Below are positions 2,636-29,192 of a stretch of 64,000 bases of DNA, piece by piece (position 1 is the stretch's first letter; every line of letters starts with the position of its first letter). The notes below the pieces were generated by a model, which was not told where the DNA came from, did no database searches, and saw nothing but the letters and a program-made list of their open reading frames with translations. The stretch is taken from the NCBI GenBank assembly GCA_964501265.1, contig CAZCSK010000003.1:436-64435 (forward strand), given 5' to 3'. This DNA is from an uncultured Actinomycetes bacterium (GTDB taxonomy: Bacteria > Actinomycetota > CADDZG01 > JAHWKV01). The position numbers were made by a program, and so were the translations under genes.

Positions 2636-2704
2636 TTGGCGGCGGCATCCGCAACCGCGGATCGCTGAGCGGCTGGTACCCGCGTAACCCAAGGCCGGGC
2701 TGAG

Positions 2705-3487
2705 TCACGAGATCGAGGGCCGAGGCGCCTCGGGCCGGTCGCCGGATACGAACCTTTCCAGACCGCTCGCAAGCTCGGGGTCATTGACGGTGGGAAGGCA
2801 GAGCTTGGCCTCAAGCATCAAGCCCTCCTCGAGCGGGAGCCCAAACCCGCCGATCAATGCGGCACGGTCGGCGCGAAGGCTTACCTGCGGATAGTCCGCG
2901 ATCCTTGTCGCAAGTTCCATCGCGCGGTCGAGGGCTTTACCGTCGGGAACCACCTCCTGAACGATCCCCATCTCAAAAGCCCGCTCGGCGTTGATACGTA
3001 TCCCGGTCTCGACCAGGTATAGAGCGTTGCCGACTCCGGCGATACGCGCAAACCTCTGCGTCCCTCCATCGGTGAACGGCACTCCCCAGCGACGGTTGAG
3101 TGCCCCGAACTCGGCGTTTTGTGCCGCTATCCGAAAGTCACACCAACAGGCGAGTTCGAATCCTCCCGCGAAGCAATAGCCGTTCACCGCGGCAATGGTC
3201 GGCTTGCCCGGATCTAGCCGGGCAAATCCCATAGGCCCCGCTTCTTCGACAAACGAATGCGAGAGCAGGCTCGATGCATTCTTCAAATCGGCTCCCGAGC
3301 AGAAAGCCTTCTCTCCCGCTCCGGTCACAACCAGGACGCGAGAATCCGCGTCGGCGGCAAATGCCTTGATGGCCTCGGCCAGCAGAGTGGCCGTCTCGCC
3401 GTCGACACAGTTGTGCGCCTCGGGCCGGTTGACCGTCAGCAGACAAACCGAACCGCTGCGCAGTACTTCAACCTTTGCCATCACCAT
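2705..3487 (-). CDS. Enoyl-CoA hydratase/isomerase (crotonase) family protein
   Basis: 260 aa with crotonase-fold motifs LTVNRPEAHN, VVTGAGEKAFCSGADLK and NGYCFAGGFELA. Confidence 0.85.
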   Translation of the reverse strand: MVMAKVEVLRSGSVCLLTVNRPEAHNCVDGETATLLAEAIKAFAADADSRVLVVTGAGEKAFCSGADLKNASSLLSHSFVEEAGPMGFARLDPGKPTIAAVNGYCFAGGFELACWCDFRIAAQNAEFGALNRRWGVPFTDGGTQRFARIAGVGNALYLVETGIRINAERAFEMGIVQEVVPDGKALDRAMELATRIADYPQVSLRADRAALIGGFGLPLEEGLMLEAKLCLPTVNDPELASGLERFVSGDRPEAPRPSIS

Positions 3488-3633
3488 CTCCTTGGAGATC
3501 TCTGCAGGTTCATGGCCTCTCCTCCTATCGGAACGACATGGCTGAAAGCCTTTTGGAAGTTCCCAAGGAGCTCGCCGTGAAGAAGTAGATCTGTTCGGAA
3601 AGCAAACCTACATCGTCGGCCTATAAAATCCGT

Positions 3634-3933
3634 GTGGGAGGGACAACCGAGGTGACCAGGCAGGAGAGGTGGAATCTTGTAGCCGCCAATCTTGGCATAT
3701 TGACGGGACTCATCCTCTTCCTGCTCTTGGTTCCGGCGGTGTGCGTCATCGCAGAGAGCTACCCCGGGCCCACGCTGAAGCATTGTTCGAGCGTCGTGAC
3801 CGGGCTACTGGAATCCGAACTGGGCAAGACTGTGCCCACCAGGGTCTCGGCGCTGGGGGCGCTGCTTATTCCTCCAGGAGGCGGTTTGCTGACCTGGTAC
3901 TTGCTCCGTCGACAGATGACTCGAGATCGTTGA
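3634..3933 (+). CDS. Hypothetical small membrane protein
   Basis: 99-aa ORF with one clear hydrophobic helix (LGILTGLILFLLLVPAVCVI). It is the only sizeable ORF in an otherwise empty 750-nt gap. No family recognised. Confidence 0.3.
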   Translation: MGGTTEVTRQERWNLVAANLGILTGLILFLLLVPAVCVIAESYPGPTLKHCSSVVTGLLESELGKTVPTRVSALGALLIPPGGGLLTWYLLRRQMTRDR

Positions 3934-4244
3934 GAGGGTCGCACCGAAAGTGTTGCACGAGGTCGGTCGTCCCACCCGCGACTACGAATCTGTGCGGAGC
4001 AAAGGGCTCGGTTCAGAAGATCCGCGCCTGGGACTTATGCTGCCCAGTTTGAACTCGTACGCGCAGCGGCGACCGGCACTTTAAGGGATCCTGACTCTTC
4101 CTCGCCTGGCTATTTTCCCACAATTCTCAAGGGAGTTAAGCCACGGCCTGATCTAATCTGGGACGGATCGGAGGAGTCGATGAAGGAACCCGCCCCCAAT
4201 TCCTGCGTGAGGAAACCACTCCATAAGCACTAGTTATCTGCAAG

Positions 4245-6347
4245 GTGGGGAAGGTGGGGAACAAGACCGTCGTCGACATCGCCGAATGGCGATCGTCTAA
4301 GCCCGCGTCCCAGAACCGCTACGATCTGCTGGAGCGTGTCGCTTTGGCTCTCAACTCAACACTCGAACTCAAGGAGGTTCTTCGCCTTCTTGCGCAGATA
4401 ATCCTGGAAGCCACCGGAGGACAGCGGTGCAGCCTCTTCTTGTTGGAGGGTCGGCAACTTCACCCCGCGGTGGCCATCGGGACCTGGTCGGACGAGGACC
4501 TCTGGAACGCCTTTCATTCCATGGCTCCCACCGACCTGGACATACCCCGCTGGCGGCTATTTCTGAAGGGTCAGCCGGTTGCCCTCGAGGACGCCCGAGA
4601 GAGCGACCTGATACCCAAGGATTGGGTGGATCGGTTCTCGTTGCGAGCCCTGGCGCTCGTGCCCCTGATGGCAGGCGATGAGCCCTACGGGCTGATGGCT
4701 GTCGATTGGCCCGAGGCCCGTTCGTTCGACGAATCCGAGATCCGCCGCCTCGGGGCGATCGGCTCCTACGCCGGGGTCGCCGTACGAAACGCCCGCCTTT
4801 TCGAGGTTGTGAAGAAAAGCGCCAGGATCCAGGAGGCCCTCGCAGCCGGCGCTTCCGCCCTCGCCTCCCCCCTGGAGCCAGCCGAGATCGCTCAGCGGCT
4901 GGCAGACGCTTACTTAGATCTTCTCGGCGCAGAGCTTTGTGCGATAGGACTTTTCGACAGCGGCCGCACGAAAGTCACAACCATTGCCGCGCGGGGAACT
5001 CGCGAAATCAGCGGTCCCCTTCCACTGGCCGAGGTGCCCAAGCGAATCGTAGCGCGCCTGGTCGCCGAGTGGACGAAGTCAAAGAATTCGGTCTCGTTCG
5101 GCGACGACCCGTGGCTCAAACGGTTCGTGGCCTGCCAGGACACCAACGCTTCTTGGTATCTGCTGGTTCCAATGGTCGCAGAAGGCCATCCGCGGGGGGT
5201 GGTCCTGCTCGGCTTTGGCCAGAAGACGAGGCTGGGCGACGAGGAGCATGCGGCAGCCGAAACCCTGGCGACCGTGGCGGCCGTCGCGGTTGAGCGAAAC
5301 TTCCTGGTTGAGCGCCTCAACCGGCAGATGCGGCAGCTCGAGATCCTGTACAGGCTGACCGCCTCGATCCACCAGAGCACGGGCGCGGCCGCGCTGATGG
5401 CCAGGCTCAATGAACTTCTCACCGGCTATGGCATCGAAGCAGTCGGGCTAGCGTTCCGAGAGAGCAACTTTGCTCGCCGTCTCGGGGGAGAAAAGCTAAC
5501 GCCCGCAGAGCGAGCGGTCTTTGCAAGAAACGGGGGCCCGAAGCGGCTCGACGACGAAACGCTCGCCGTCCCCATGCGCCTCGGGCGCCGGCTGGTGGGC
5601 GTGCTGCGGGTGCGGGTGGGAGCACTGGAGGCCGAGGAGCAGTCCTTCCTCGAAGCGGTGGGATCAGGCATCGCCGAGGTCGCCACCATGGCGGCGTTGC
5701 GTTCTGCCTTCGAGGAGGCGTCACGGGAACGTGCCGTGGCCGGCGAGCGGGAACGATTCGCCTCCGACCTGCACGACACTGCCGGGCAGCTGTTCGTCGC
5801 GTCGGGGCTATTGGCTCGCAGGTTTGTGGGTCAGCTGCCTTCCGACTCGCCCTGGGCGGAGCGAATTCTCCGGCTCGTCGCGCTCGCCGACCGGGGCAAG
5901 TGGGAGATCGATCAGGCTATACGCGCTCTCAGTTTCGTTCCTGCAGCCCGCAGCGGCCTTCCCACCGCGCTTCGCGCTCTCGCCCGGTCGTTTGAATCCG
6001 ACAGCGGCATCCATGCCCCCTTCCGCACGATCGGCAAACCGCCGCGGCTTGCGGCTGAAGTCGAGCGCACTCTCTACCGAGTGGCCCACGAGGCAACCAG
6101 CAATGCCTGGCGACACGCCCGCTGCACGATTGTCCGCCTCGAACTTGCCTACGAAGACAGTGAAGTCGTTCTGCGGATTCTCGACGACGGCATCGGGCTC
6201 AATGCGAGGGAGAAGGAGGGATCCCCGGGGATCGGGATCTTCAGCATGCGGCGTGCAATGGAGGCGGTCGGCGGTTGCCTTCGCGTTCGGAGCCGCCGGC
6301 CGCGAGGGGTCCTGGTGGAGGCGCGAGTCAAAAGGGGGCCCCGATGA
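4245..6347 (+). CDS. GAF-domain sensor histidine kinase (HisKA_3 / NarL-partner type)
   Basis: 700 aa with N-terminal GAF-like regions. H-box ERERFASDLHDTAGQ. HATPase_c-like motifs (EATSNAWRHA, LDDGIGL, GIGIFSMRR). The stop overlaps the start of a response regulator. Confidence 0.8.
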   Translation: MGKVGNKTVVDIAEWRSSKPASQNRYDLLERVALALNSTLELKEVLRLLAQIILEATGGQRCSLFLLEGRQLHPAVAIGTWSDEDLWNAFHSMAPTDLDIPRWRLFLKGQPVALEDARESDLIPKDWVDRFSLRALALVPLMAGDEPYGLMAVDWPEARSFDESEIRRLGAIGSYAGVAVRNARLFEVVKKSARIQEALAAGASALASPLEPAEIAQRLADAYLDLLGAELCAIGLFDSGRTKVTTIAARGTREISGPLPLAEVPKRIVARLVAEWTKSKNSVSFGDDPWLKRFVACQDTNASWYLLVPMVAEGHPRGVVLLGFGQKTRLGDEEHAAAETLATVAAVAVERNFLVERLNRQMRQLEILYRLTASIHQSTGAAALMARLNELLTGYGIEAVGLAFRESNFARRLGGEKLTPAERAVFARNGGPKRLDDETLAVPMRLGRRLVGVLRVRVGALEAEEQSFLEAVGSGIAEVATMAALRSAFEEASRERAVAGERERFASDLHDTAGQLFVASGLLARRFVGQLPSDSPWAERILRLVALADRGKWEIDQAIRALSFVPAARSGLPTALRALARSFESDSGIHAPFRTIGKPPRLAAEVERTLYRVAHEATSNAWRHARCTIVRLELAYEDSEVVLRILDDGIGLNAREKEGSPGIGIFSMRRAMEAVGGCLRVRSRRPRGVLVEARVKRGPR

Positions 6348-18486: not shown

Positions 18487-19755
18487 ATGAATTATCTAGC
18501 TAGGAACAACCGTAAGGCAAAAAGGAAGAAACGGCTCTCGATAGTCTGCGGAGTCGCGCTCGTTGTCTCGGCACTATCCATGGGGCGGGGGCTCGCGCTG
18601 CTTCCTATTGAGGAGGAGCTGCTTCCAATTCCCGGGGACCCGCTTCCGCTCCCCATTCCAACACCGGTGCCGGATCCGACAGAAATCCTCTTCCCCCCGG
18701 AAGAACCATCCCCGACACCTACGCCTACGTCTACTGCCACGCCCGCGCCGGCGCCGGCTCCGGCCGACTCACCGCCTCCAACGACGGGGAGCGGTGGCGG
18801 CTCTGAAGCAATACCCGGTCAACCGATTGGCGTAACCCCGCCGAAGATCGCCCCCCCTCCCGTCGTTCTGCCGGGCTCCGTCCCCGCTCTGAACGTGGCC
18901 CCCCCAACTTCACCAGATGGGGTCGGGGCAGGGTTGGATGAGTTCGGGTTTGCTGCCCGGGCTACCTGGGGCGGGCGGAATGACCCGGGCGGATACCTCC
19001 GCGCTCCCGGAGGCCGCTCCACCTTCAGGATCTTGGAGATCATGCGCTCGATCGGGGCGCTGCCTTATACAGTTGCAAGGATACTTGCCCCCTTCCCGGT
19101 CGCGGGCGAGGCGAACTATTCAGACGACTGGGGACAGCCGAGGGGATCCGAACCCTACCTTCGTTCCCACGAGGGAACCGACATCTTCGCGGATCAAGGG
19201 ACATCGGTGATCGCTTCATCGGCCGGGACCGTAGAGTTGACCACGGGAGGGATTTCGGGTTACGCGGTGAAGCTTGTCGCCTCGGACCGCACTTATTACT
19301 TTTACGCCCACCTTCAAAGCTTCGCACCGCGCCTGGTGGACGGCATGACCGTTAGCCCGGGTCAGGTTCTGGGTTTCGTGGGGACCAGCGGCAACGCCGC
19401 TGGCACCCCTCCGCATCTACACTTCGAGATCCATCCTGGTGGAGGGCCCGCAGTGCCTCCCGTCCCATACCTGGATCGTTGGCTTGCGGAGGCCTTGAGC
19501 GCCTCTGAGGCTCTCGCCGAGTCGCCGGTTCGGCAGTTGGGTCAATGGCTTGGTGCGGTTTCCCAGAAAGGAGCCAAAGCTGTCGCACGGCTGCCCTTGG
19601 TTCTAGGGGAGTTCAAGCCGGTATCCGGGACAGCTGCGGCCTTGGGATGGGCACCCTTGTTCCTGCTGGCCTTCCTCTGGTGGCTGCGCCGGCGTAGCTC
19701 GCTCATAGCCCGCCCAGCGGCAAGCGGCGCTGACAGGTTCCTGGAGTTCCCATAG
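18487..19755 (+). CDS. M23 (LytM-type) metallopeptidase, membrane-associated
   Basis: 422 aa with an N-terminal anchor and a Pro-rich linker. M23 motifs HEGTDIFA and GTSGNAAGTPPHLHFEIHP. C-terminal hydrophobic helix (LGWAPLFLLAFLWWLRRR). Confidence 0.85.
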   Translation: MNYLARNNRKAKRKKRLSIVCGVALVVSALSMGRGLALLPIEEELLPIPGDPLPLPIPTPVPDPTEILFPPEEPSPTPTPTSTATPAPAPAPADSPPPTTGSGGGSEAIPGQPIGVTPPKIAPPPVVLPGSVPALNVAPPTSPDGVGAGLDEFGFAARATWGGRNDPGGYLRAPGGRSTFRILEIMRSIGALPYTVARILAPFPVAGEANYSDDWGQPRGSEPYLRSHEGTDIFADQGTSVIASSAGTVELTTGGISGYAVKLVASDRTYYFYAHLQSFAPRLVDGMTVSPGQVLGFVGTSGNAAGTPPHLHFEIHPGGGPAVPPVPYLDRWLAEALSASEALAESPVRQLGQWLGAVSQKGAKAVARLPLVLGEFKPVSGTAAALGWAPLFLLAFLWWLRRRSSLIARPAASGADRFLEFP

Positions 19756-19799
19756 GTTTACCTCGGGAGAAATGCCCCTGAGGTGAGGGCGGACAGCCG

Positions 19800-21899
19800 G
19801 TGAGAGAGTGGGTTCTCCAGCGATATCAGGTTTACGGGCGCGTCTGCCTTATCATTGCGATCTCCATCTCCCCGCTGGTTTTTTATCGCCGTACCGTCGA
19901 TGCCTTCAACTTGGCGAAGATCACCGTCTTATGGGTTTTCGGCGTTCTGGCGTTGGTGACTTGGCTATCTTGGTCGATGGAGCGAGGCGTGTGGCCTCCG
20001 CTGTCGCGAATCATATACGCCGCCGCCGCCTTCCTCGGAGTATGTGGGCTGGCCACCGTCTTTTCACAAAACTCCCTCGTTTCACTGATCGGGCTCTACC
20101 ATCGCTACGGCGGCCTCATCCCTTTCATCCTTTACGCCGTCATCATGGTGTTGATCGTGGGGCTCTACTGGGAGCGTCCCGATGATCTGAAGGAGATCGC
20201 CAGAGCCTCCGGGATAGCTTCGATCCTAATGGCCGGCTATGTTCTGATCCAGGCCGCAGGTCTCGACTGGATCAGATGGGCGACTCCCGACGGCGAGCTT
20301 CCGAGCTTCCCCGTGGGGACCATGGGCAACTCCAACTTCGCCGGAGGTTACTTGGGGATTGCGGTGCCCTTTTCCCTATACCTGGCTCTCACCGCCAAAC
20401 ACACCATCTCCAAGGTGCTGCTCACCGCTTTCGTGGGCCTAGACCTGTTGGCGCTGTGGTTCACGCAGACCCGGGGCGGCATGATCGCCGCGGGTGCAGG
20501 TTTGGTCACTATGGCCTTCGTATACCGTGACCGGCTTCCAAGATGGGCCAGAGCCGCCGTTGTTTCGGCAGTGATGCTTGCGGTGGTGACTGCGATCTTG
20601 GTTCTATGGCATCCCGGGTCCAAGCGTCCGCCGGAACCGCTGGCTCGCTCCACGACGCTTCGGACCGACACCTTTACCATCCGAACCCATTATTGGGATG
20701 CGGCTTGGCGTGTCTTCAAAGACCATCCCTTGCTGGGAACCGGGCCGGAAACCTATTTCGTCAACTATCCCAGATACCGTTCGGCGGCCGACGGCGCCCG
20801 GCTGGGATCCATCCTGACCGACAAACCCCACAATATCTATCTCGAGTACGCCGCCAACGCGGGAGTGTTGGGGGTTGGCGCCTATCTTCTGCTGGTGAGT
20901 CTGGGCGGGTGGTATGGATACATTGGAGCCCGGCGACGCGAGGGCCACGAGCGCCTTCTTGCGACGACTTTTCTTGGCGTGTTGGCAGGGTATCTAGCCC
21001 AAGGGTTCTTCTCTATAGACGTGCCTCCACTGGCGCTGATGGGGTGGGTGGCCCTGGGAGGGATTACCGCCGCAGTCGATCCAAAAATGGCCGCTGCGCG
21101 CGATCGCAGGCTGGCCGAACGCGAGCAAAAAGGAAGGCCCGGGCTTCGAAAGAACAACCGACCCAGCCCTGCACAAGAAGAATTTCCGGTGCGGCACGGT
21201 TTCCCTCTTTGGCCGGTCCATGCCGTCCTTGCCATGATCGCCGCAGGCCTGCTTGCAGTGGGGACGCGCCCTTTTCTTGCCGACATAAAGGCACAAAATG
21301 CGCAGATTCTGCAAAATGCTAGAGCGCCGTCGAACGTTGTAGCCGCTAATTATCAGCAGGCGATCAAGCTCCATCCGCTCGAGCCGACCTATCGAGTGCT
21401 GGCTGGCTTCTTCTCGGAAAGGCAGGCGAGCTCCACTGGGAGTCGGGTCGAAAAAAGACGGCTCTTCCTCCAAGCGCTGGCCCGTTATCGAGAAGCCCAA
21501 CGGCTCCAGCCGGGAAACATCTTTTACTTGATGAACAGCGCCAGGACGTATGCCACTTGGGGAGAGACCCTTGACGCCAAGAGATTCGCCGAGGCGGATC
21601 GCCTATGGGCCAGAATTGTTGCCGACGACCCCGCCGACTACTCAGTCCACGTCGAATACGCGCTGATGCTCAACTCGTGGGGCAACGCCACTAACAGCCG
21701 GGAGATCCGTCTACGCTCGGCTCAGGAGTTGAAGGAGGTTATACGCATCCGGCCCGATTACGCCGACGCTTGGGTCAACCTCGGAAAGCTCTATCGGGCA
21801 CTCGGGGAGTCGGAGAAGGCCGAGGCTGCCCTGAAGCAAGCGCTCACCATAGAGCCCACCAACCAAGAAGCCAGGCAATTGCTCGCGTCGCCGAGCTGA
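19800..21899 (+). CDS. O-antigen ligase/polymerase (Wzy_C-like) membrane protein with C-terminal TPR repeats
   Basis: 699 aa, polytopic. Wzy_C-like core (WFTQTRGGMIAAGAGL, KPHNIYLEYAANAGVLG). The C-terminal ~200 aa are TPR-like. Confidence 0.75.
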   Translation: MREWVLQRYQVYGRVCLIIAISISPLVFYRRTVDAFNLAKITVLWVFGVLALVTWLSWSMERGVWPPLSRIIYAAAAFLGVCGLATVFSQNSLVSLIGLYHRYGGLIPFILYAVIMVLIVGLYWERPDDLKEIARASGIASILMAGYVLIQAAGLDWIRWATPDGELPSFPVGTMGNSNFAGGYLGIAVPFSLYLALTAKHTISKVLLTAFVGLDLLALWFTQTRGGMIAAGAGLVTMAFVYRDRLPRWARAAVVSAVMLAVVTAILVLWHPGSKRPPEPLARSTTLRTDTFTIRTHYWDAAWRVFKDHPLLGTGPETYFVNYPRYRSAADGARLGSILTDKPHNIYLEYAANAGVLGVGAYLLLVSLGGWYGYIGARRREGHERLLATTFLGVLAGYLAQGFFSIDVPPLALMGWVALGGITAAVDPKMAAARDRRLAEREQKGRPGLRKNNRPSPAQEEFPVRHGFPLWPVHAVLAMIAAGLLAVGTRPFLADIKAQNAQILQNARAPSNVVAANYQQAIKLHPLEPTYRVLAGFFSERQASSTGSRVEKRRLFLQALARYREAQRLQPGNIFYLMNSARTYATWGETLDAKRFAEADRLWARIVADDPADYSVHVEYALMLNSWGNATNSREIRLRSAQELKEVIRIRPDYADAWVNLGKLYRALGESEKAEAALKQALTIEPTNQEARQLLASPS

Positions 21900-22003
21900 A
21901 TTGACGCGCTCCCCTATCCAGGCCCTTGCACCCCAGTCGTTGAGTCTTAGGCCCTCGTCTAAACCACGCGACTTTTCGGGTATCCATTCGTACTGAAGAG
22001 GTT

Positions 22004-23857
22004 ATGGAACTAATAGCCCTGAGAGTAAAGCGTTTTCGTAGCCTTTACGAAACCGGCTGGATCCCGTTTTCCGACATCACAGTCCTCATCGGTGAAAACG
22101 ATGGCGGCAAGACCACGACCATCGACGCGCTGGACGTTCTTCTCGGGAACCGGAGCCTCGATGTCGGAGACTTTTCACACAGCGACAGCGCAGGGGCGGA
22201 AAGCGACGAGATCGAACGCGAGTCAGAACTGGCCATAGAAGTGAAGTTGAGAGTCACCGCTGCTGAGATGGATCAGGTTCGCAACGCAGCGCCTCTCGCC
22301 AAGTTCGATGGCGACACGCTGCACCTTGTCAGGAAAGGATCGCTCACCGAAGAGGGGCCGACGGTGTCGAGGCTCAAGATCGTGGCCATAGCTCCTGAAG
22401 ATCCGAGGCTCCACCGCGACGCCGACGGGCTCCGGCTGCAAGAACTGCGGCAGTTCGTCGACGAGCAGGTCATCAATGTAGCGGGTCCGCGCAACCAAAA
22501 GGATTCCTTCATCCAGGCGATCCTCGCAGCGGAGGAACATCTTTCATGGGGGCCGTGCGAACTGGAGGTGGGACCAGCGATCCTTCGAAGCCTCCCGATT
22601 CTTACCCTCTATCCGAACGATCTCGATCCCGAGCAAGTCGTCTCGACTGTCCTCCGCAGCGTCTTCGCTCAGGAGATCCGCTCGGACCACTATCAAGACC
22701 GGCTCGAGCAGATCGGAAGGGAGATCCGTTCGGTCCTGGATGAGGCCATCTCGCAACTCAAGCCGCTCGTGACGAAGTACCGACCGGACATCGCAGACGT
22801 TCGGGTGACGCCCCGGCTGGACTTCGAGCGGGGATATCAGGGCGCGGGGCTAGAGCTGATCGGGGGCAGCGGACAACCGATCAGTTTGGCCAAGCGGGGA
22901 CTCGGGATTCGGAACCAGGTCACGCTCGCAGTCTACGAATGGAACTCGGAAATTCTCCGGACGCGGATTGCCGAAGGTGTCCGCCCTACCATCCTCGCCT
23001 TCGATGAGCCGGACCTTCACCTCGACTACGGCTCCCAACGAAGACTCTTCGATCTGATTCGCGGTTTTGCAGGGCCGGGCGTACAAGTGGTCGTGGCGAC
23101 CCACTCGCTGAACTTCGTCAACCGAGTACCCATCTACAAGCTCAACGGTTACCGGCTGGATTCGGCGGCGCATACGGTTATCGAGAACGTTCCGTCCGGA
23201 CCTGAGGCTGAAGAACTTTTCCTTTATCAGCTCGGGGCCGGGATGGGATTAGAGAACAGTCTTATGTTCTACGAAAGGTGCTTCCTCGTGGTCGAGGGCC
23301 GCACGGAGATGCCCTTGCTTCCCCGCCTCTACGAACTGTACACGGGAGCGAGCATGTGGTCGGAAGGGATCCGACAGCTAGACGGTGAGGGCAACGGCGG
23401 AGCGCGCCTATTCGCCAAGTTCCTCAACCGAAGCCGGCGAAACGTGGTGTTCCTCGTCGATGAGGACGCGATGACCGCTCCCGGGTCGGGGCGCGTCTTC
23501 TCGAAGGAGCAGCTTCTGGCTGACGGTTTCGATGTTGAGACTCAGGTTCACTTCGTGGGACCACGGGAATTGGAAGAGGCCTTCTCCAACGAAGTCTGGG
23601 CCCGCGTCGGAAATGCCTTCTACCCGCGAGACGGAGATCAGTCTTGGAAGGGTGAGGACTTCGAGCAAATGCGTCACGATCAGCAGCGCAAGTTTAAGGA
23701 CGCCCTGCTGCAGGCCTTTAGAACGGATCCCGCAACCTTAGGTCTGAAGCTTGCGCACGCCGTCGAGGTGGCGGATGAGATTCCGGAGCCAATTCGCAGC
23801 TGCTTCGACGGCGCGCGAACCATCGCCAATAGAATGGCAGGAGAGGGGCTTTCGTGA
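22004..23857 (+). CDS. OLD-family ATP-dependent nuclease (ABC-type ATPase + Toprim)
   Basis: 617 aa. N-terminus RVKRFRSL...VLIGENDGGKTT (Walker A), ILAFDEPDLHLD (Walker B) and VVVATHS. C-terminal Toprim-like LVVEGRTE ... VFLVDEDA. Confidence 0.75.
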   Translation: MELIALRVKRFRSLYETGWIPFSDITVLIGENDGGKTTTIDALDVLLGNRSLDVGDFSHSDSAGAESDEIERESELAIEVKLRVTAAEMDQVRNAAPLAKFDGDTLHLVRKGSLTEEGPTVSRLKIVAIAPEDPRLHRDADGLRLQELRQFVDEQVINVAGPRNQKDSFIQAILAAEEHLSWGPCELEVGPAILRSLPILTLYPNDLDPEQVVSTVLRSVFAQEIRSDHYQDRLEQIGREIRSVLDEAISQLKPLVTKYRPDIADVRVTPRLDFERGYQGAGLELIGGSGQPISLAKRGLGIRNQVTLAVYEWNSEILRTRIAEGVRPTILAFDEPDLHLDYGSQRRLFDLIRGFAGPGVQVVVATHSLNFVNRVPIYKLNGYRLDSAAHTVIENVPSGPEAEELFLYQLGAGMGLENSLMFYERCFLVVEGRTEMPLLPRLYELYTGASMWSEGIRQLDGEGNGGARLFAKFLNRSRRNVVFLVDEDAMTAPGSGRVFSKEQLLADGFDVETQVHFVGPRELEEAFSNEVWARVGNAFYPRDGDQSWKGEDFEQMRHDQQRKFKDALLQAFRTDPATLGLKLAHAVEVADEIPEPIRSCFDGARTIANRMAGEGLS

Positions 23858-24066
23858 AGATTATCCCGGTGGCCTCTACCAACATAGAAGCCATCGGCTA
23901 TGACGAGGCGACTCTCATTTTGCGGGTGGTGTTTCGGAACGGGTCGGTTTATGAATACCTGGGTGTGCCCCTCAAAGTGTTTGGCGAGTTCAAGGCGGCA
24001 CCTTCGAAGGGAAGGTTCGTGAACAGTGCTCTCCGCCGACGTTACAGGTATCGGCGAATCCGATGA
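23854..24066 (+). CDS. KTSC-domain protein
   Basis: 70 aa with a GTG start in a GTGA overlap with the OLD stop. The whole protein fits the KTSC pattern (SSxIxAIGYDxxxxxLxVxFxxGxVYxYxxVPxxVFxxFxxAxSKGxFxN). Confidence 0.8.
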   Translation: MKIIPVASTNIEAIGYDEATLILRVVFRNGSVYEYLGVPLKVFGEFKAAPSKGRFVNSALRRRYRYRRIR

Positions 24067-24223
24067 TCCACACTTGGACCCGCTAGGGCAACGAGGGCCT
24101 GAAGGGTCATGCGCGAGGGAACGGTAGATCCAGCGCGATTGAGTCTAGTCAGGGTGGGACCTGAACCAGCTTGCGTAGGGCCGGACCTCAGCGTCCCTTG
24201 GGTCATTGACCAAAAGTCTTCCT

Positions 24224-24463
24224 TCACTTCCCGATAAACCGGACCCGGGTCGAATCGAAGCGCTCGCGCGAAAGCCAGAAGCTCGACGATGTCGACTCAC
24301 TGCCGACCGGGCTGCCGCGCTGGAAACGAAGGAGTGTGACCGGGCCGAGTAGCGGAGCTAGGTCGTCCTGCAACATCCCCACCTGCCGGAGACGTGTTTC
24401 GGTAAACACACAGCCGATGAGTTTGTCATTGCTGAGGTCGCGGATGTGCTTCGGTTTAGGCAT
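24224..24463 (-). CDS. XRE-family HTH regulator (paralog 1, divergent)
   Basis: Start moved to the internal Met (MPKPKHIRD...) by homology with MPKAKRKR... of 26092..26343. HTH-like core (RLRQVGMLQDDLAPLLG). More degenerate than paralog 2. Confidence 0.55.
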   Translation of the reverse strand: MPKPKHIRDLSNDKLIGCVFTETRLRQVGMLQDDLAPLLGPVTLLRFQRGSPVGSESTSSSFWLSRERFDSTRVRFIGK

Positions 24464-24477
24464 GGTCGTCTTGGGAT

Positions 24478-24527
24478 ACATGCCGCACGCTGGAACCGAA
24501 ATCTCGATATCCAAAAAGTGGATAGAG
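24478..24527 (-). promoter_or_regulatory. Conserved promoter/operator-like segment upstream of XRE paralog 1
   Basis: GAACCGAAATCTCGATATCCAAAAA (24493..24517) is identical at 24 of 25 positions to 26371..26395. Contains the inverted repeat TATCCA-N5-TGGATA. Sits at the same distance from the start codon as in paralog 2. Confidence 0.6.
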
Positions 24528-24597
24528 CGATAGGATTAGATCTTTCCCAACGACGAGGAGTGCGCGTGCTCATGCGGCGACCAAAGGCCAGGCGATT

Positions 24598-26061
24598 ATG
24601 AGCGAGTGGCTGGCCGCCGGAAGATCGCTTAGCAGGATCGGTCAGCCGGATCGCGAAAGGCAGCGTGCCTTGGAAAGAGCCCTCGAGAAGCAAACGATCA
24701 CGGAGCCTCCGAGAAGACTGGTGTGTCCGCTGCTGGAGGCTGGCTCTGAAGGTCGCGACCTCAAAAAGAAGTCCGAAGACGGTAGCAGCAGCGGGTTTGG
24801 AGTCCCGGATTGGCTTCTGGGTCCTCTCGTCGTTGCGGCGATTGCGCTACTAAGACGGGCCTCACAGGTGGGACTGGAGCGGACTGTTCCTCCTCGCTTC
24901 CTTCCGTGGATGGGAGGTCCGCAGAAAGTTGGTTCAAAACAGCAGAAGATGATCCTCAAAGAACTTGGGCAGCACGCGCTCTTTACGCAAGCCGTCTTTG
25001 AACTATTCAATTTGTCCCATGCTCCGTGTGTAAGGACGTACGAGAAGCTCTCTCTCGAACAAGTACTTGATGATTTGGAGCGACGGGACGACGAGCCCGA
25101 CCACCTCGTCTGCCTGCTTCTCGCTTCGGGTCGAGGATCAGATGCGCAGGCGGTTGCAGTTTGGGCAAAGCAGCAAGTGTTGGTGCAAGCATTTGATCCA
25201 CCCTCTCAAGGAAACCTCATTGGGACGAGTGATTCCGATCTGGATGTCAGTGGCCTTCACCGAGCACTCGAGGAAGAACGCCGATCTCGAAAGCGAGCGG
25301 AGCATGCGCTAATAGGGGCCGAGCGCTCCGAGGAAGCACATAGCAAAAGAGCTGTTGATGCCGAGCAGCAAGCGGTGGATGCGTACAGGAAGGTCGCCAC
25401 GGCCGCTGAAGAGGCGATCGAATTGAGCGAACAGATTGCGAAACTCAAGACTGAACTCCGGAAGACCGCTCGTGAACGTCGGACCCTGCTTCTGGAGCGG
25501 GAGCGTCTGCTAGGGCGATTTTTGCGCGCACGTCGCGACCTGAGAATGATCCGAGCTAAAGTGCCGGATCAGGTTCCAATATCTGCTGGATGTTTGTTTG
25601 AGGTCAGTACCTCAAGACCGCCGCCGTCAGTAGGTGAGCTAAACGAGCGGTATCGAAGCGGGGGATCCAGATCAGTCCTGGAGGCAAAGCCGCTGATCTT
25701 GATGATCGATGGGTGGAACGTGGTTCTGGGTCACATGCTGACTGGCAATCTGAGGGACCGCCGCCTTAGGTTGGAGCGGACTCTAGCCGGTTACGAGGCC
25801 CGAACTGGCAACCGGGTGCTGGTCGTTTACGACGGCCGGGAGGACGTATCGATAACAATGCCTCAGGCCCGAGGGATCCTTCGAGTATTCACCCTTGAAG
25901 ATGAATCGGCCGACGACTACATCGTCTCGGAGTTGGAAATCGGAACCGGTTTGCTCGCACCCGTGGTAGCCACCTCGGACCGGGAGCTTGGGCGCAGGTG
26001 CAGAGATTTTGGGGCGTTTGTCGTTACCTCAGACGAGCTTGCCCGTTTCCTCAAATTGTAA
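24598..26061 (+). CDS. Coiled-coil protein with C-terminal YacP/Rae1-like NYN ribonuclease domain
   Basis: 487 aa. Charged coiled-coil-like segment (about residues 225-320). C-terminal NYN pattern ILMIDGWNVV ... VLVVYDG ... VFTLEDESADDYI ... VVATSDRELGRRCRDFGAFVVTSDEL. Confidence 0.7.
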   Translation: MSEWLAAGRSLSRIGQPDRERQRALERALEKQTITEPPRRLVCPLLEAGSEGRDLKKKSEDGSSSGFGVPDWLLGPLVVAAIALLRRASQVGLERTVPPRFLPWMGGPQKVGSKQQKMILKELGQHALFTQAVFELFNLSHAPCVRTYEKLSLEQVLDDLERRDDEPDHLVCLLLASGRGSDAQAVAVWAKQQVLVQAFDPPSQGNLIGTSDSDLDVSGLHRALEEERRSRKRAEHALIGAERSEEAHSKRAVDAEQQAVDAYRKVATAAEEAIELSEQIAKLKTELRKTARERRTLLLERERLLGRFLRARRDLRMIRAKVPDQVPISAGCLFEVSTSRPPPSVGELNERYRSGGSRSVLEAKPLILMIDGWNVVLGHMLTGNLRDRRLRLERTLAGYEARTGNRVLVVYDGREDVSITMPQARGILRVFTLEDESADDYIVSELEIGTGLLAPVVATSDRELGRRCRDFGAFVVTSDELARFLKL

Positions 26062-26091
26062 TCCGCTCGGTCCGAGATGGGGAGCGTCGGT

Positions 26092-26343
26092 TCACCTGAG
26101 CGACCCCCGAAGTTGACGAACGAACCGGGCCGGGTCGAAACTTAGCGCTTCGGCGAAGGTGAGCAACTCGACAACATCCACCCGATGCTGCCCGGCCTCG
26201 ACGTTTGAGACGAACGACTGGGGTCGCCTCAAGAGCTTTCCAACCTGAGCCTGGGTCATACCAAGCTTTCTCCTGCGGTCCGCGAGCAGGCGACCGATGA
26301 CTTCGTACTTCTGGAAGTTCCGCTTGCGTTTCGCTTTGGGCAT
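26092..26343 (-). CDS. XRE-family HTH regulator (paralog 2)
   Basis: 83 aa with the classic pattern RRRKLGMTQAQVGKLLRRPQSFVSNVEAGQHRVDVVELLTFAEAL. Confidence 0.85.
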   Translation of the reverse strand: MPKAKRKRNFQKYEVIGRLLADRRRKLGMTQAQVGKLLRRPQSFVSNVEAGQHRVDVVELLTFAEALSFDPARFVRQLRGSLR

Positions 26344-26355
26344 GACCCCTCCTGG

Positions 26356-26405
26356 GCATGCCGGATGCTAGAACCGAAATCTGGATATCCAAAAACTAGA
26401 TGGTC
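26356..26405 (-). promoter_or_regulatory. Conserved promoter/operator-like segment upstream of XRE paralog 2
   Basis: Duplicate of 24478..24527. Contains the perfect palindrome TGGATATCCA (26382..26391). Lies in the divergent region shared with the ECF sigma gene. Confidence 0.6.
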
Positions 26406-26659
26406 TCCACCGGCTGGCAAAGTCACCGCCGGGTAAATGCTCGGGAGGACGCTGGTTTGCGGACCTCGTCTGCGCGAGAGAATCTTGTTCTGGCTTAGTT
26501 GGCCGCCGTTCGAGATTTCTGGTGGCCACGAATCAGGAGTTTGGTGGCCGTTAGTCGGGACTTTCGAGCTCCTTGTGACCTTGTCCTCGAGGGCCCTGGT
26601 ATTGTACACTTACCGCCGTCGGACGGGTCGAGGGTGCAGTCGGAAGCCAGGGGCTAACA

Positions 26660-27748
26660 GTGGCCGTTGATATCTCAGAGATCTCGGATGGTGCTCTGGT
26701 CAGGCGCCACCTGGAGGGAGAGGAGCAGGCTTTCGAGGAACTATTCGACCGTTACTACACTCGCCTATTCCGGTTTTGCCTCCAACGAGTCGGCGATCGG
26801 TCTGCATCGGAAGACATCGCCCAGGACACCCTGCTTCAGGCGCTCAAGTATCTGCAGGGTTTCGATCCGAAGCGCCCCATGTGGCCGTGGCTCAAGACCA
26901 TCGCCGGGCACCTGATCGGCCGGTTTATTGGTGTCAAACACGAAGAGCAGTCCCTCATCGAAACTTGGGTCCCGAGCGCTGCCAGCGTACACGACGCAGC
27001 CGACCTACTTGGGGAAAAGGAACTCCTCGGCTTGGCCCTCAAAAGGCTCGCCCCCTCGCAGCGAAATGCGATCAGTCTTCGTTACCTCGACGAGTGGAGC
27101 CCTAAAGAGTTGGCTGAGTTTCTCGGGGTAGGCAAACACGCAGTCGAGCAACTGCTCTCGAGGGCGCGAGTGAAACTGCGCGAAGAGTACCGCCGCTTGT
27201 CGAGTGAGGGCCGGGAGAGACTCGGATTGGTCTGTCCCCCGCTGCTGGTGCGTGTTCGAAACAGGTTTCGACAGTGGGCTGCAAACCTTCGCGGCGAGAA
27301 CGGGCTGGTCCAAGCCGGCGCGAGCGGTGCGCCTCTCATTAATCAGCTGCTGGGTCTGATCGCCGCAGGTGTTGCGATCGTGCTACTCGCAGCCGGAAGC
27401 ATTCATGGCCCGAATGCGTCTGGAGCCGCCGCGGCCCGGCAAGGGCAAGGGCACATAGGGTCGCCGCACGCTGGCATCCAGGACGCCGGGCAACGCGAGA
27501 CCATCTTCAAGAGAAGTTCCCGGTCGGTGCATATCTCGACAGACCAGATGGTCGGCGGCGCACCGGGGTCTGCTTCGGGATCCGTGGAAGTTAAGAAGAA
27601 TTCACTGCGCGCCAGGCTTGAGGCAAAAACCCCTGGGGATCACCACATCATCGTTCCGGTCTGGATCGAGACCAATGCCGAATGTGATTATTCCGCCGTC
27701 CAACAGGCTTTGTGCGAGATGGTCGATAGGTTGCCGGACCAAGACTGA
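26660..27748 (+). CDS. ECF-type sigma-70 factor with fused C-terminal transmembrane/extracytoplasmic extension
   Basis: 362 aa with a GTG start. Region 2 (FEELFDRYYTRLFRFC, DIAQDTLLQAL) and region 4 (LAPSQRNAISLRYLDEWSPKELAEFLGVGKHAVEQLLSRAR). These are followed by a TM helix (LLGLIAAGVAIVLLAAG) and a ~110-aa tail. Confidence 0.8.
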   Translation: MAVDISEISDGALVRRHLEGEEQAFEELFDRYYTRLFRFCLQRVGDRSASEDIAQDTLLQALKYLQGFDPKRPMWPWLKTIAGHLIGRFIGVKHEEQSLIETWVPSAASVHDAADLLGEKELLGLALKRLAPSQRNAISLRYLDEWSPKELAEFLGVGKHAVEQLLSRARVKLREEYRRLSSEGRERLGLVCPPLLVRVRNRFRQWAANLRGENGLVQAGASGAPLINQLLGLIAAGVAIVLLAAGSIHGPNASGAAAARQGQGHIGSPHAGIQDAGQRETIFKRSSRSVHISTDQMVGGAPGSASGSVEVKKNSLRARLEAKTPGDHHIIVPVWIETNAECDYSAVQQALCEMVDRLPDQD

Positions 27749-27812
27749 TTCGCGCTTCGAGGCGGGGCGATTACCTAATCACACAAGACCACCCATCTCT
27801 ACTTTTTTAAGT

Positions 27813-28067
27813 TCAGACAGGCCTCGGTACGCGGACACTGAAGCCAGCGCCATACCCGTCAACGGTCGGATCGGCCCCGGCGCCAATATGAGCCCACTCA
27901 TCAAACACCGTAACGCAGTCGCCCACGGGGGTTGAATTCCCCGCTTGCCAGATTCGCACTTCCGCGCAAACTTCTGCACTAGCGGCCGGAGCAAACAGGC
28001 CAATAACTCCTACGACTACCAGCACGACCGTCAGAAGAATTGTGATGCGCCTCGACTGTGTTCTCAT
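27813..28067 (-). CDS. Small secreted hypothetical protein
   Basis: 84 aa with a signal peptide (ILLTVVLVVVGVIGLFAPAASA|EV) and two Cys residues in the mature part. Confidence 0.5.
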   Translation of the reverse strand: MRTQSRRITILLTVVLVVVGVIGLFAPAASAEVCAEVRIWQAGNSTPVGDCVTVFDEWAHIGAGADPTVDGYGAGFSVRVPRPV

Positions 28068-28260
28068 CTGCTTCTCCCTCTCCCCGAGTTCCTTCGACGA
28101 CTTTGCATGATTCGTCCGTCAATTTCTTCCCCCTACCCGGTAGAACGGCCAAAAAAAAGGGGTTAGTCATTACCCCCAATTTGCCGGATGGCGGCCGCTG
28201 TGCAAAGGCCCTCAAGCTTTTCGGCTACCGCCGTAAAGTGGCATCGCGTGGTACCGCGCT

Positions 28261-28467
28261 GAGGCCGCGGCCATAGCCCAGCGGGAGGAAGCTAGGCATG
28301 ACCTCGAAGGTTGGTGTTAGGACTACCCCCCATTTCTTCCTCCAAATACCGAAAAGGGGGAAGAACTGCGGGCCCGTTCCGACTAGCCTCCCAGACAGAA
28401 GAGGCGTTGCTTCATCACCGGATGTCCGCATCACAACAGACCAAGTCTTCGCTGGGAGTGGCCAGGT
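28261..28467 (+). repeat. Element A, copy 2 (candidate structured leader upstream of the tad operon, with a relic of a response-regulator 3' end)
   Basis: Aligns by eye with 6935..7140. The single difference inside the 9-bp hairpin (C to T) converts a G-C pair to G-U. Ends 84 nt upstream of the cpaB start. Confidence 0.7.
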
Positions 28468-28550
28468 GCAGGGAAAGGGCTACGACCCGGAATCTCTCTC
28501 GGAAGAGGCGTTTCTGAAACTGCTGGCAACTCATGTGAAGGAGGGCTCTG

Positions 28551-29192
28551 ATGCAGGCCGCTGAAGCCGTCGTTCCTCGCACCGCCGCTAGGCTCCGCCG
28601 GATTGATCTTCGGGTGGGGGTTGGAATTTTTCTCATGGCGCTTTCGCTGATCGGCTCGACCGCGCTTATTCGAAAAGCCGAGGCAAGATTGTCGGTCCTT
28701 GTGGCCGCTCACACTGTGGAGCCTGGTTCGGTTATCCAAGCGTCGGACCTGCGCGTAGAGAGCATCTCGTTAACCGGTGGAGTGGCCTACCTCGGCGAAA
28801 AGCGAAGGAACGCGGTCGTCGGCAAGATCGCAGCCGAGCAGCTTTGGCCCGGGAAGCTTCTCAGTTCATCCTCGGTCGCGGACACGGCGAAGCTGCCCGC
28901 CGGGTATGTGGCGATGAGCCTCGCCTTAAAGCCCGACCGCGCGGCGGGAGGGCAGCTGCGCCCCGGCGACCACGTGGCCGTGATCGCTTCGACTTCGCCC
29001 GACCGTCCTAACGCGAGCACCAGACTTCTCTTGACCGACGTTCCCGTCCTTTCTATAAGGCAGGGGGATGCCGCCGATGGCGGCGCCGTGATCGTTACTC
29101 TCCGGCTGCGCTTGGAGGAAGCTCGCGACCTTGCCGAAGCGCGATCCGCCGGGTCGATCGATCTTGTGCTTCTCTCGGGGGCTAAGTCGTGA
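28551..29192 (+). CDS. cpaB: Flp pilus assembly protein CpaB-like (SAF domain)
   Basis: 213 aa with GAAGGAGGG upstream. N-terminal TM helix and a SAF-like segment (VLVAAHTVEPGSVIQASDLRV). First gene of the tad operon. Confidence 0.75.
   Translation: MQAAEAVVPRTAARLRRIDLRVGVGIFLMALSLIGSTALIRKAEARLSVLVAAHTVEPGSVIQASDLRVESISLTGGVAYLGEKRRNAVVGKIAAEQLWPGKLLSSSSVADTAKLPAGYVAMSLALKPDRAAGGQLRPGDHVAVIASTSPDRPNASTRLLLTDVPVLSIRQGDAADGGAVIVTLRLRLEEARDLAEARSAGSIDLVLLSGAKS

Follow-up and report, generated by a model that had tools for sequence, protein, structure and literature searches.

Among the effector families of bacterial immunity, the OLD nucleases are one of the most widespread. We analyzed a 64,000-nucleotide (nt) stretch of DNA (hereafter, the window) from an uncultured Actinomycetes bacterium (GenBank assembly GCA_964501265.1, contig CAZCSK010000003.1, positions 436 to 64,435 of the forward strand), in which an OLD nuclease gene is joined to a gene for a bare KTSC domain. 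The pair looks like an undescribed two-part variant of OLD anti-virus systems, whose novelty lies in its class of accessory subunit and not in a categorically different mechanism. The adjacency of OLD and KTSC genes is far above chance, and the conserved unit is not strictly OLD plus KTSC: it is an OLD clade together with one exchangeable small partner, which is KTSC, a bare WYL domain, a family of about 180 amino acids (aa) or a short open reading frame (ORF) with a CRWCG motif. How stand-alone OLD nucleases sense infection is an explicit open question in a review of the field (PMC10568477).

The elements of the gene pair are as follows.

22004 to 23857, plus strand: OLD-family nuclease gene with an ATG start, 617 aa (ORF and Pfam)
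23840 to 23848, plus strand: Shine-Dalgarno-like GGAGAGGGG within the 3' end of the OLD gene, read from the sequence
23854 to 23857, plus strand: GTGA overlap, in which the KTSC GTG start lies over the OLD TGA stop
23854 to 24066, plus strand: bare KTSC-domain gene with a GTG start, 70 aa (Pfam KTSC)

The distance from GGAGAGGGG to the GTG start of the KTSC gene is about 5–10 nt. A second metagenomic contig with the same DNA (L097; loci of our survey are numbered with the prefix L) gave identical gene boundaries by an independent gene call. Scans for promoter and terminator consensus sequences found nothing above the expectation from shuffled sequence. Judged by their reading frames, the OLD and KTSC genes are a single, evidently translationally overlapped operon. 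This stop/start overlap is specific to the window; in relatives, the two genes are separated by gaps of 10–31 nt or the partner lies upstream.

OLD homologs were collected by a protein search, which gave 104 clusters of about 600 aa, and a profile-based scan of metagenome contigs contributed a further 80 loci. All loci were translated in six frames and searched with hidden Markov models (HMMs) built from the partners; duplicates were collapsed and sufficient flanking DNA was required. The clade of the window OLD was defined by a family-HMM score of at least 340 bits (38 loci), and more distant OLD genes were used as the outgroup (26 loci). The partners were distributed between the two sets as listed here.

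Window OLD clade, 38 loci: KTSC, 11; bare/WYL-like, 16; family of about 180 aa, 3; CRWCG ORF, 5; none, 3
More distant OLD genes, 26 loci: KTSC, 0; WYL, 0; family of about 180 aa, 0; CRWCG ORF, 0; none, 26

A recurrent small neighbor within about 70 nt was present in 35/38 testable relatives versus 0/26 outgroup OLD genes. The number of OLD-KTSC adjacencies expected by chance was about 3e-4, and 11 were seen. The original prediction, made from the letters of the window, had proposed a candidate two-gene OLD-KTSC module and had named the lack of such recurrence in other genomes as its refutation. The pair recurred in 11 of the 38 testable relatives, at identities from 67% down to about 28%, and the proposal holds in the broader form of an OLD gene with an exchangeable partner. 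The approximately 100 OLD clusters were scattered among Firmicutes, Actinomycetota, Chloroflexota, Deltaproteobacteria and Bacteroidota. A scan with the single OLD sequence of GTDB contigs, one genome per species, returned, with the search patterns used, one distant, truncated match only.

The KTSC assignment of the partner ORFs was verified with Pfam in all 16 cases (16/16). Among the WYL-like partners (n=19), 7 matched Pfam WYL and 10 matched PADLOC WYL models; the remainder were joined by the HMM of this analysis only. KTSC and WYL partners were always encoded on the same strand as OLD, no more than about 70 nt away, either upstream or downstream, and were bare domains of 70–110 aa, free of a helix-turn-helix (HTH), for which Pfam reported KTSC or WYL alone. 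In the nearest relative (67% identity; contigs L002 and L003), a 71-aa KTSC gene is located 10 nt downstream of the OLD gene, and the relatives at about 45% identity (L005–L007) have a bare WYL gene of 86–103 aa that scored 26–28 bits (cutoff 21.8).

The two other partner types were as follows. Members of the family of about 180 aa had no Pfam match, were 40–43% identical to one another, and shared the motifs GEFxRFY(I/L)RG(V/L)C and PRPES...GPNSGLG; their genes were upstream on the same strand or downstream and convergent. Copies were found at three loci.

L096, 4450 to 4998 (Pimelobacter simplex CP182501)
L015, 2400 to 2939
L022, 2851 to 3381, minus strand

The CRWCG ORF (64–89 aa) was convergent, with its 3' end abutting or overlapping the OLD stop codon, and carried the motif TPDGCRWCG...H...W..PT..QR.ARM.ARR. 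It matched no significant Pfam family, DUF7374 being reached at sub-threshold level only. The OLD genes linked to it belong to a high-GC, mostly actinobacterial subclade of the family, and the ORF was also present on the Streptomyces linear plasmid pADI95-16b (L098) and on an unverified phage scaffold, MT835746 (L099).

L019, 5769 to 6029, minus strand
L021, 1991 to 2188, minus strand
L027, 5793 to 6062, minus strand
L041, 5826 to 6020, minus strand
L098 and L099

The partnerless testable members of the clade were L013, L031 and L034. At L053 (OLD gene at 3914–5827), three genes were located ahead of the OLD gene, at 2198–3683 on the plus strand: a KTSC gene, an ORF of about 330 aa with a second KTSC domain at its end, and a WYL gene. 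L053 thus carries KTSC and WYL together, so the two are not strictly alternatives.

In a neighbor-joining tree of full-length OLD proteins, KTSC- and WYL-linked genes were interleaved. L014 (KTSC) and L020 (WYL) were sisters, as were L040 (KTSC) and L036 (WYL); the KTSC-linked window clade was sister to L005–L008 (WYL), and the partnerless OLD genes formed a separate deep clade. A common origin of KTSC and WYL as distant homologs that share a fold was considered and rejected (hhalign probability 0.1%; no WYL structure among the Foldseek matches of the KTSC model). Because these non-homologous small domains repeatedly replace each other at the same position, they appear to serve the same job for OLD, which points to functional equivalence of the KTSC and WYL partners, not to common descent.

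A column-by-column comparison of the OLD proteins indicated where a partner may dock.

23201 to 23242, plus strand: helix 400–413 between the ATPase and Toprim domains, candidate partner-docking site

Residue 408 in this helix was Leu in 8/9 KTSC-linked OLD proteins and aliphatic in 0/13 WYL-linked ones, sister pairs included. We tentatively suggest that helix 400–413, with L408, is a partner-docking surface; the pattern is a correlation in a small, phylogenetically structured sample.

The 617-aa protein matched Pfam AAA_15 (83 bits), AAA_21 and OLD-like_TOPRIM PF20469 (32.7 bits, cutoff 23.2; residues 422–488). This agrees with its earlier description as an OLD nuclease with ABC-ATPase and Toprim domains, and all four motifs quoted in that description are present. 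Residues invariant in an alignment of 36 homologs are given for each motif.

22091 to 22117, plus strand: Walker A motif (P-loop) GENDGGKTT; G30, N32, G35 and K36 invariant
22991 to 23026, plus strand: Walker B and D-loop ILAFDEPDLHLD; D334, E335, P336 and D337 invariant
23285 to 23308, plus strand: Toprim catalytic Glu motif LVVEGRTE; E431 and G432 invariant
23447 to 23470, plus strand: Toprim metal-binding DxD motif VFLVDEDA; D486 and D488 invariant

The H-loop residue H367, C-terminal to the Walker B/D-loop, was invariant in the same alignment. Because the ATPase and Toprim residues are invariant across 36 homologs, the enzyme looks catalytically competent. An AlphaFold2 model built on the 36-sequence alignment had a predicted local distance difference test score (pLDDT) of 85.7 and a predicted template modeling score of 0.70. 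Its best fold matches in the PDB were Gabija GajA (8x5i, 8u7i and 8sm3), the Thermus scotoductus OLD (TsOLD, 6p74) and the retron-Eco8 OLD (9lpa and 9lp9), followed by Septu PtuA and then by SMC/Rad50 heads, with identities to the window OLD of 12–16% throughout. When the PDB was searched by sequence, TsOLD was the sole OLD-family match, over 45 residues of the P-loop region (phmmer E 1e-5). The window protein is a true member of the OLD family, at a roughly equal distance from each of the characterized classes.

The 70-aa protein, whose start had been described as overlapping the OLD stop in GTGA, is likewise a bare KTSC domain by both ORF coordinates and Pfam (PF13619, 77.6 bits, cutoff 25; residues 8–64, profile positions 2–58). 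It has the family's domain of approximately 58 residues, the YxY motif conserved as Y33-E-Y35, and the beta4-alpha2-beta fold; the AlphaFold2 model (pLDDT 90.5) showed this topology. The isoelectric point (pI) is 10.7, and the C-terminus is a basic tail, RRRYRYRRIR. The model superimposed on the solved KTSC proteins 4rgi and 7x8c with template modeling (TM) scores of 0.90–0.92, and on the C-terminal domain of HerA from the Paenibacillus SIR2/HerA complex (8wof and 8wld) with a TM score of 0.86 at 40% identity. By sequence, its PDB matches were 4rgi, 7x8c and 8wiv (HerA residues 633–696, E 7e-10). KTSC is a rare domain, found in about 7,400 of 1.84 billion cluster representatives, and no OLD-KTSC fusion of the Rosetta-stone kind was found in ten multidomain proteins scanned from the 150 best KTSC matches.

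A word-indexed search with the window KTSC recovered a sole relative, P0106 (L088–L093), which is 42% identical. Its gene is not beside an OLD gene; it has a HEAT-repeat/N6_N4 methyltransferase pair on one side and a phage-integrase fragment on the other, and an operon with CD-NTase and patatin genes (CBASS-like) lies 2 kb away. From this lone gene it follows that KTSC is not exclusive to OLD and also occurs solitary in defense or mobile islands.

We consider it reasonably probable, from the analysis as a whole, that the pair is a two-component OLD defense module in which KTSC is a dedicated accessory subunit; its defense activity and its mechanism are what we infer. The effector would be the 617-aa ABC-type ATPase fused to a Toprim two-metal nuclease, which would nick or degrade DNA, its presumed target, as characterized OLD proteins do. 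KTSC would be produced in step with OLD and would bind it, possibly near helix 400–413, thereby supplying the missing input: it may recognize a nucleic-acid or small-ligand signal of infection, and the sensed signal would either switch the ATPase-gated nuclease on or guide it to the target. The bare WYL domain, or one of the two other small proteins, occupies this slot in sister lineages, and because of this replacement the partner is best seen as a sensor or regulator that is modular and exchangeable. Wherever a multi-gene OLD class has so far been studied, sensing or regulation comes from the partner (PMC10568477, PMC11464382). Because GajB, the msDNA (multicopy single-stranded DNA) of the retron and the AriA scaffold control the nuclease elsewhere, the small partner here is expected to interact with OLD and to regulate it or sense for it. 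A sensing role is suggested also because WYL is documented as a sensor of ligands and single-stranded nucleic acid.

The tight operonic coupling to a small partner is, at the same time, typical of type II toxin-antitoxin pairs, and the ready exchange of non-homologous partners is antitoxin-like. The partner might then be a stoichiometric inhibitor of a constitutively dangerous OLD enzyme, whose nuclease would be freed once infection or loss of the element removes or titrates the inhibitor, with abortive infection or addiction as the outcome. Resting PARIS and retron-Eco8 complexes keep their nuclease inactive (PMC11464382; bioRxiv 10.64898/2025.12.04.692459), and some of the partners are acidic (pI 4.6–6). 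However, most toxin-antitoxin pairs have a fixed, autoregulated gene order, whereas here the partner can be upstream or downstream and one type is convergent. Neither WYL nor KTSC is known to act as a nuclease inhibitor, and WYL is a documented ligand sensor. Moreover, L013, L031 and L034 carry OLD genes with no partner, which would be lethal if OLD were constitutively toxic, unless these copies are inactive. We regard the inhibitor as unlikely, while taking it seriously; of the two modes of action, we favor a sensed signal that activates or targets the nuclease over constitutive inhibition. A role for the small partner as a transcriptional regulator of the OLD gene, as BrxR is for BREX and CapW for CBASS, instead of an enzyme subunit is highly improbable. 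WYL-domain regulators do commonly flank defense systems, as indicated by the titles of studies by Luyten in 2022 and Makarova in 2014 that are cited in PMC12839542. BrxR-type regulators, however, are proteins of about 300 aa with HTH-WYL-WCX domains, whereas the OLD partners are bare and HTH-free, and translational overlap with the 3' end of the gene that it targets is unusual for a regulator.

The pair could also serve DNA repair, replication restart or chromosome maintenance, with OLD processing DNA structures and KTSC or WYL targeting it to single-stranded DNA, as WYL does in PafBC and PIF1 contexts, or it could have a cell-cycle role like that of Cran1. WYL domains act in the DNA-damage response (PafBC), and the window pair is set among chromosomal envelope and tad genes and lacks mobile-element hallmarks. 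Such a non-defense function is, in our judgment, quite improbable. The distribution of the OLD clade is very patchy, and fast exchange of partners characterizes conflict systems rather than housekeeping genes. Relatives at 65–67% identity differ in context, and others stand by restriction-modification genes, HEPN genes, transposases or plasmid ends. Several observations nevertheless weigh against a defense module with KTSC as its sensor, and some of them favor a housekeeping function. Cran1, an OLD class of archaea, has its function in the cell cycle and not in defense (PMC12796447). In contrast to P2 Old and PARIS, the clade hardly occurs on viral contigs: IMG/VR viral contigs gave two distant matches only, and GenBank phages gave one unverified scaffold, with a CRWCG-type partner. 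Near the window pair, no tRNA, integrase or second recognizable defense gene was found, and the GC dip is mild. In Desulfofundulus kuznetsovii DSM 6115 (L094, CP002770.1 2064475–2076298), OLD plus WYL is embedded in a glycosyltransferase/Wzy operon, 25 nt and 6 nt away from the glycosyltransferase genes on its two sides; neither this site nor the window pair with its Wzy_C neighbor is a classic defense island. As for the sensor itself, the pI of OLD-associated KTSC proteins spans 4.7 to 10.7, which means that no general basic surface for binding nucleic acid is conserved, and nucleic-acid binding by KTSC is a prediction of databases and literature. KTSC fusions elsewhere, to Sel1/TPR repeats or as tandem KTSC copies, include the Sel1/TPR type, which is as compatible with an adaptor between proteins as with a sensor.

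The genes upstream of the window pair encode an M23 peptidase and a Wzy_C+TPR protein, the Wzy_C gene directly preceding OLD. Those downstream encode NYN_YacP, an XRE HTH protein and an extracytoplasmic function (ECF) sigma factor, followed by the tad locus (RcpC, CpaF-type T2SSE, T2SSF and TadE). The GC content around the pair is 0.57–0.60 versus 0.62–0.65 in the flanks. The surroundings had been called a typical defense islet; the XRE/NYN genes, the envelope genes and the tad locus are where they were said to be, whereas the islet itself, with this mild dip, is a weak case. The association with Wzy genes at 19800–21899 of the window and in D. kuznetsovii may be accidental or may reflect a preference for envelope-polysaccharide loci, which are variable.

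The NYN and XRE genes were considered as members of the module and rejected: an NYN gene was found near one other locus only and belongs to a different NYN family (L005, 8376–8918, adjoining the OLD+WYL locus). XRE-like ORFs near other loci were weak and limited to the two closest relatives. The NYN_YacP protein of the window (24598–26061, plus strand, 487 aa) has its YacP-like NYN ribonuclease domain at the C-terminus (residues 368–485), behind a long N-terminal extension of charged, coiled-coil-like sequence. A 45-nt direct repeat, 87% identical, is located just upstream of each of two small minus-strand genes.

24224 to 24481, minus strand: small gene
24479 to 24523: first copy of the repeat
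26092 to 26343, minus strand: small gene
26357 to 26401: second copy of the repeat

One of the small genes encodes an XRE HTH protein and the other is an 85-aa ORF that gave no Pfam match; their N-termini are alike (MPKPKH.. and MPKAKR..). Each is divergent from a plus-strand gene, namely NYN_YacP (24598–26061) and the ECF sigma factor (26660–27748). The repeats and small genes look like a duplicated regulator/operator cassette.

The upstream genes of the relatives at 65–67% identity differ from those of the window, and for this reason we consider that the two-gene unit moves as a cassette. One relative has a Tsp45I restriction-modification system and a HEPN gene beside OLD, another has a recombinase and a transposase, and the relative on a Streptomyces linear plasmid is close to the plasmid end, with a restriction endonuclease and IS3 and Mu transposases. 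The gene directly upstream of OLD-KTSC in L002 (2–2008, plus strand) encodes a protein longer than 668 aa whose Walker B motif is SbcC/Rad50-like; in the window, the Wzy_C gene has this position. Several OLD genes of the clade are located within a few kb of the ends of Streptomyces/Kitasatospora linear plasmids.

NZ_CP107856.1, 1627 to 3459
NZ_CP108821.1, 3855 to 5726
NZ_CP107961.1, 669261 to 671141 of 674441

Some linear plasmid records contain two OLD copies, which suggests a location in terminal inverted repeats.

A sizeable and phylogenetically broad clade of apparently stand-alone OLD nucleases thus carries a tiny, easily overlooked partner gene. Since the partner is swapped among unrelated small domains, the clade offers a handle on the input side of OLD enzymes and amounts to a natural experiment with one effector and different sensors. 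Sister variants are available in cultured carriers, D. kuznetsovii DSM 6115 and P. simplex, and on Streptomyces plasmids.

OLD proteins are classified by context as single genes (Class 1), with a UvrD-like helicase (Class 2), retron-linked (Class 3) or PARIS (Class 4) (PMC10568477). The window OLD resembles Class 1 (P2 Old, TsOLD 6P74, the Vibrio cholerae OLD and E. coli YbjD) in having ATPase and Toprim in one polypeptide of about 520–620 aa and in the absence of a helicase, reverse transcriptase or separate Toprim partner; its identity to TsOLD is about 16%. However, Class 1 by definition has no conserved neighbor (PMC10568477), whereas 35/38 relatives have one here, and the locus fails Class 1 because of this neighbor.

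Gabija is similarly a two-gene OLD system whose partner controls the nuclease. GajA gave the closest fold match (8x5i, E 1.7e-16), and no family was more frequent among the top 25 PADLOC matches of the window OLD; these GajA matches were partial and reached at most 80 bits. In Gabija the partner is the UvrD-like helicase GajB, whereas here it is a 70-aa KTSC protein that lacks any enzymatic motif. As had been noted for the adjacent genes, no UvrD/PcrA/Rep helicase was found by Pfam among the called genes within 10 kb on either side. PARIS also combines an OLD-type ABC ATPase with a Toprim nuclease and separates sensor and effector in its logic. It differs in that AriA and AriB are separate genes (or a fused AriAB) with a DUF4435 Toprim, whereas the window has a single polypeptide with OLD-like_TOPRIM and a non-nuclease second gene. 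This distinction had been drawn in the original prediction and is borne out by the single ORF: no DUF4435 match was found in OLD at E<=0.01, and no separate Toprim gene within 10 kb on either side. The PADLOC AriA match on OLD covered the generic AAA_15 C-terminal region only (residues 227–372). The retron-Eco8 OLD of Class 3, a fold match (9lpa and 9lp9), is comparable in that the effector is checked by a non-enzymatic partner, the msDNA. No reverse transcriptase (RVT) was found within 10 kb of the pair, and Rfam gave no match at E<=0.1 in 19000–29000, where a novel noncoding RNA is possible.

PADLOC-DB v2.0.0 was searched as the catalog of defense systems, and the pair is not listed there as a known subtype: KTSC matched 0 families, and OLD gave partial matches only (AriA, Old and GajA; <=83 bits). 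The WYL-type partners matched generic WYL, AbiEii and RT-WYL models only. In the open full-text literature we found no paper that links OLD to either KTSC or a bare WYL domain; a prior mention in Krishnan et al. 2020 (NAR 48:10045), a catalog of OLD neighborhoods, is possible. BrxR, CapW and WYL1, the Cas13d accessory protein, likewise link a small beta-rich ligand-binding domain to a defense effector, whereas the OLD-linked WYL domains are bare and HTH-free, and KTSC is unrelated to WYL in sequence or fold.

The closest parallel for KTSC itself is SIR2-HerA of Paenibacillus sp. 453MF, in which KTSC is attached to a defense NTPase that partners an effector. There, KTSC is fused to the HerA translocase, with a SIR2 NADase as the effector, whereas in the window KTSC is free beside an OLD nuclease. 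HerA residues 576–696 are described as a 'C-terminal arm domain' that wraps the neighboring subunit, with KTSC unnamed and no sensing role given (PMC11472057). Systems with a HerA-like ATPase, a KTSC protein and an endoDNase have been mentioned by the Aravind laboratory (PMC9503650), from which two papers refer to KTSC. The earlier view that KTSC has no assigned role in immunity therefore stands for its association with OLD, but not in general, as the HerA protein of the validated SIR2-HerA antiphage system has KTSC as its C-terminal domain (PMC11472057). Its presence in conflict systems has been noticed before, though not together with OLD.

The locus fits none of Classes 1–4. It is possible, at somewhat less than even chances, that it represents a fifth OLD context class, defined by a slot into which small input subunits that are not homologous can be exchanged, and that KTSC is a general adaptor or sensor which plugs into defense NTPases of different superfamilies (the OLD ABC ATPase and HerA). 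If so, this would be the first biological role for KTSC, a domain of unknown function, and a first testable function for a domain that is present on the antiphage HerA as well.

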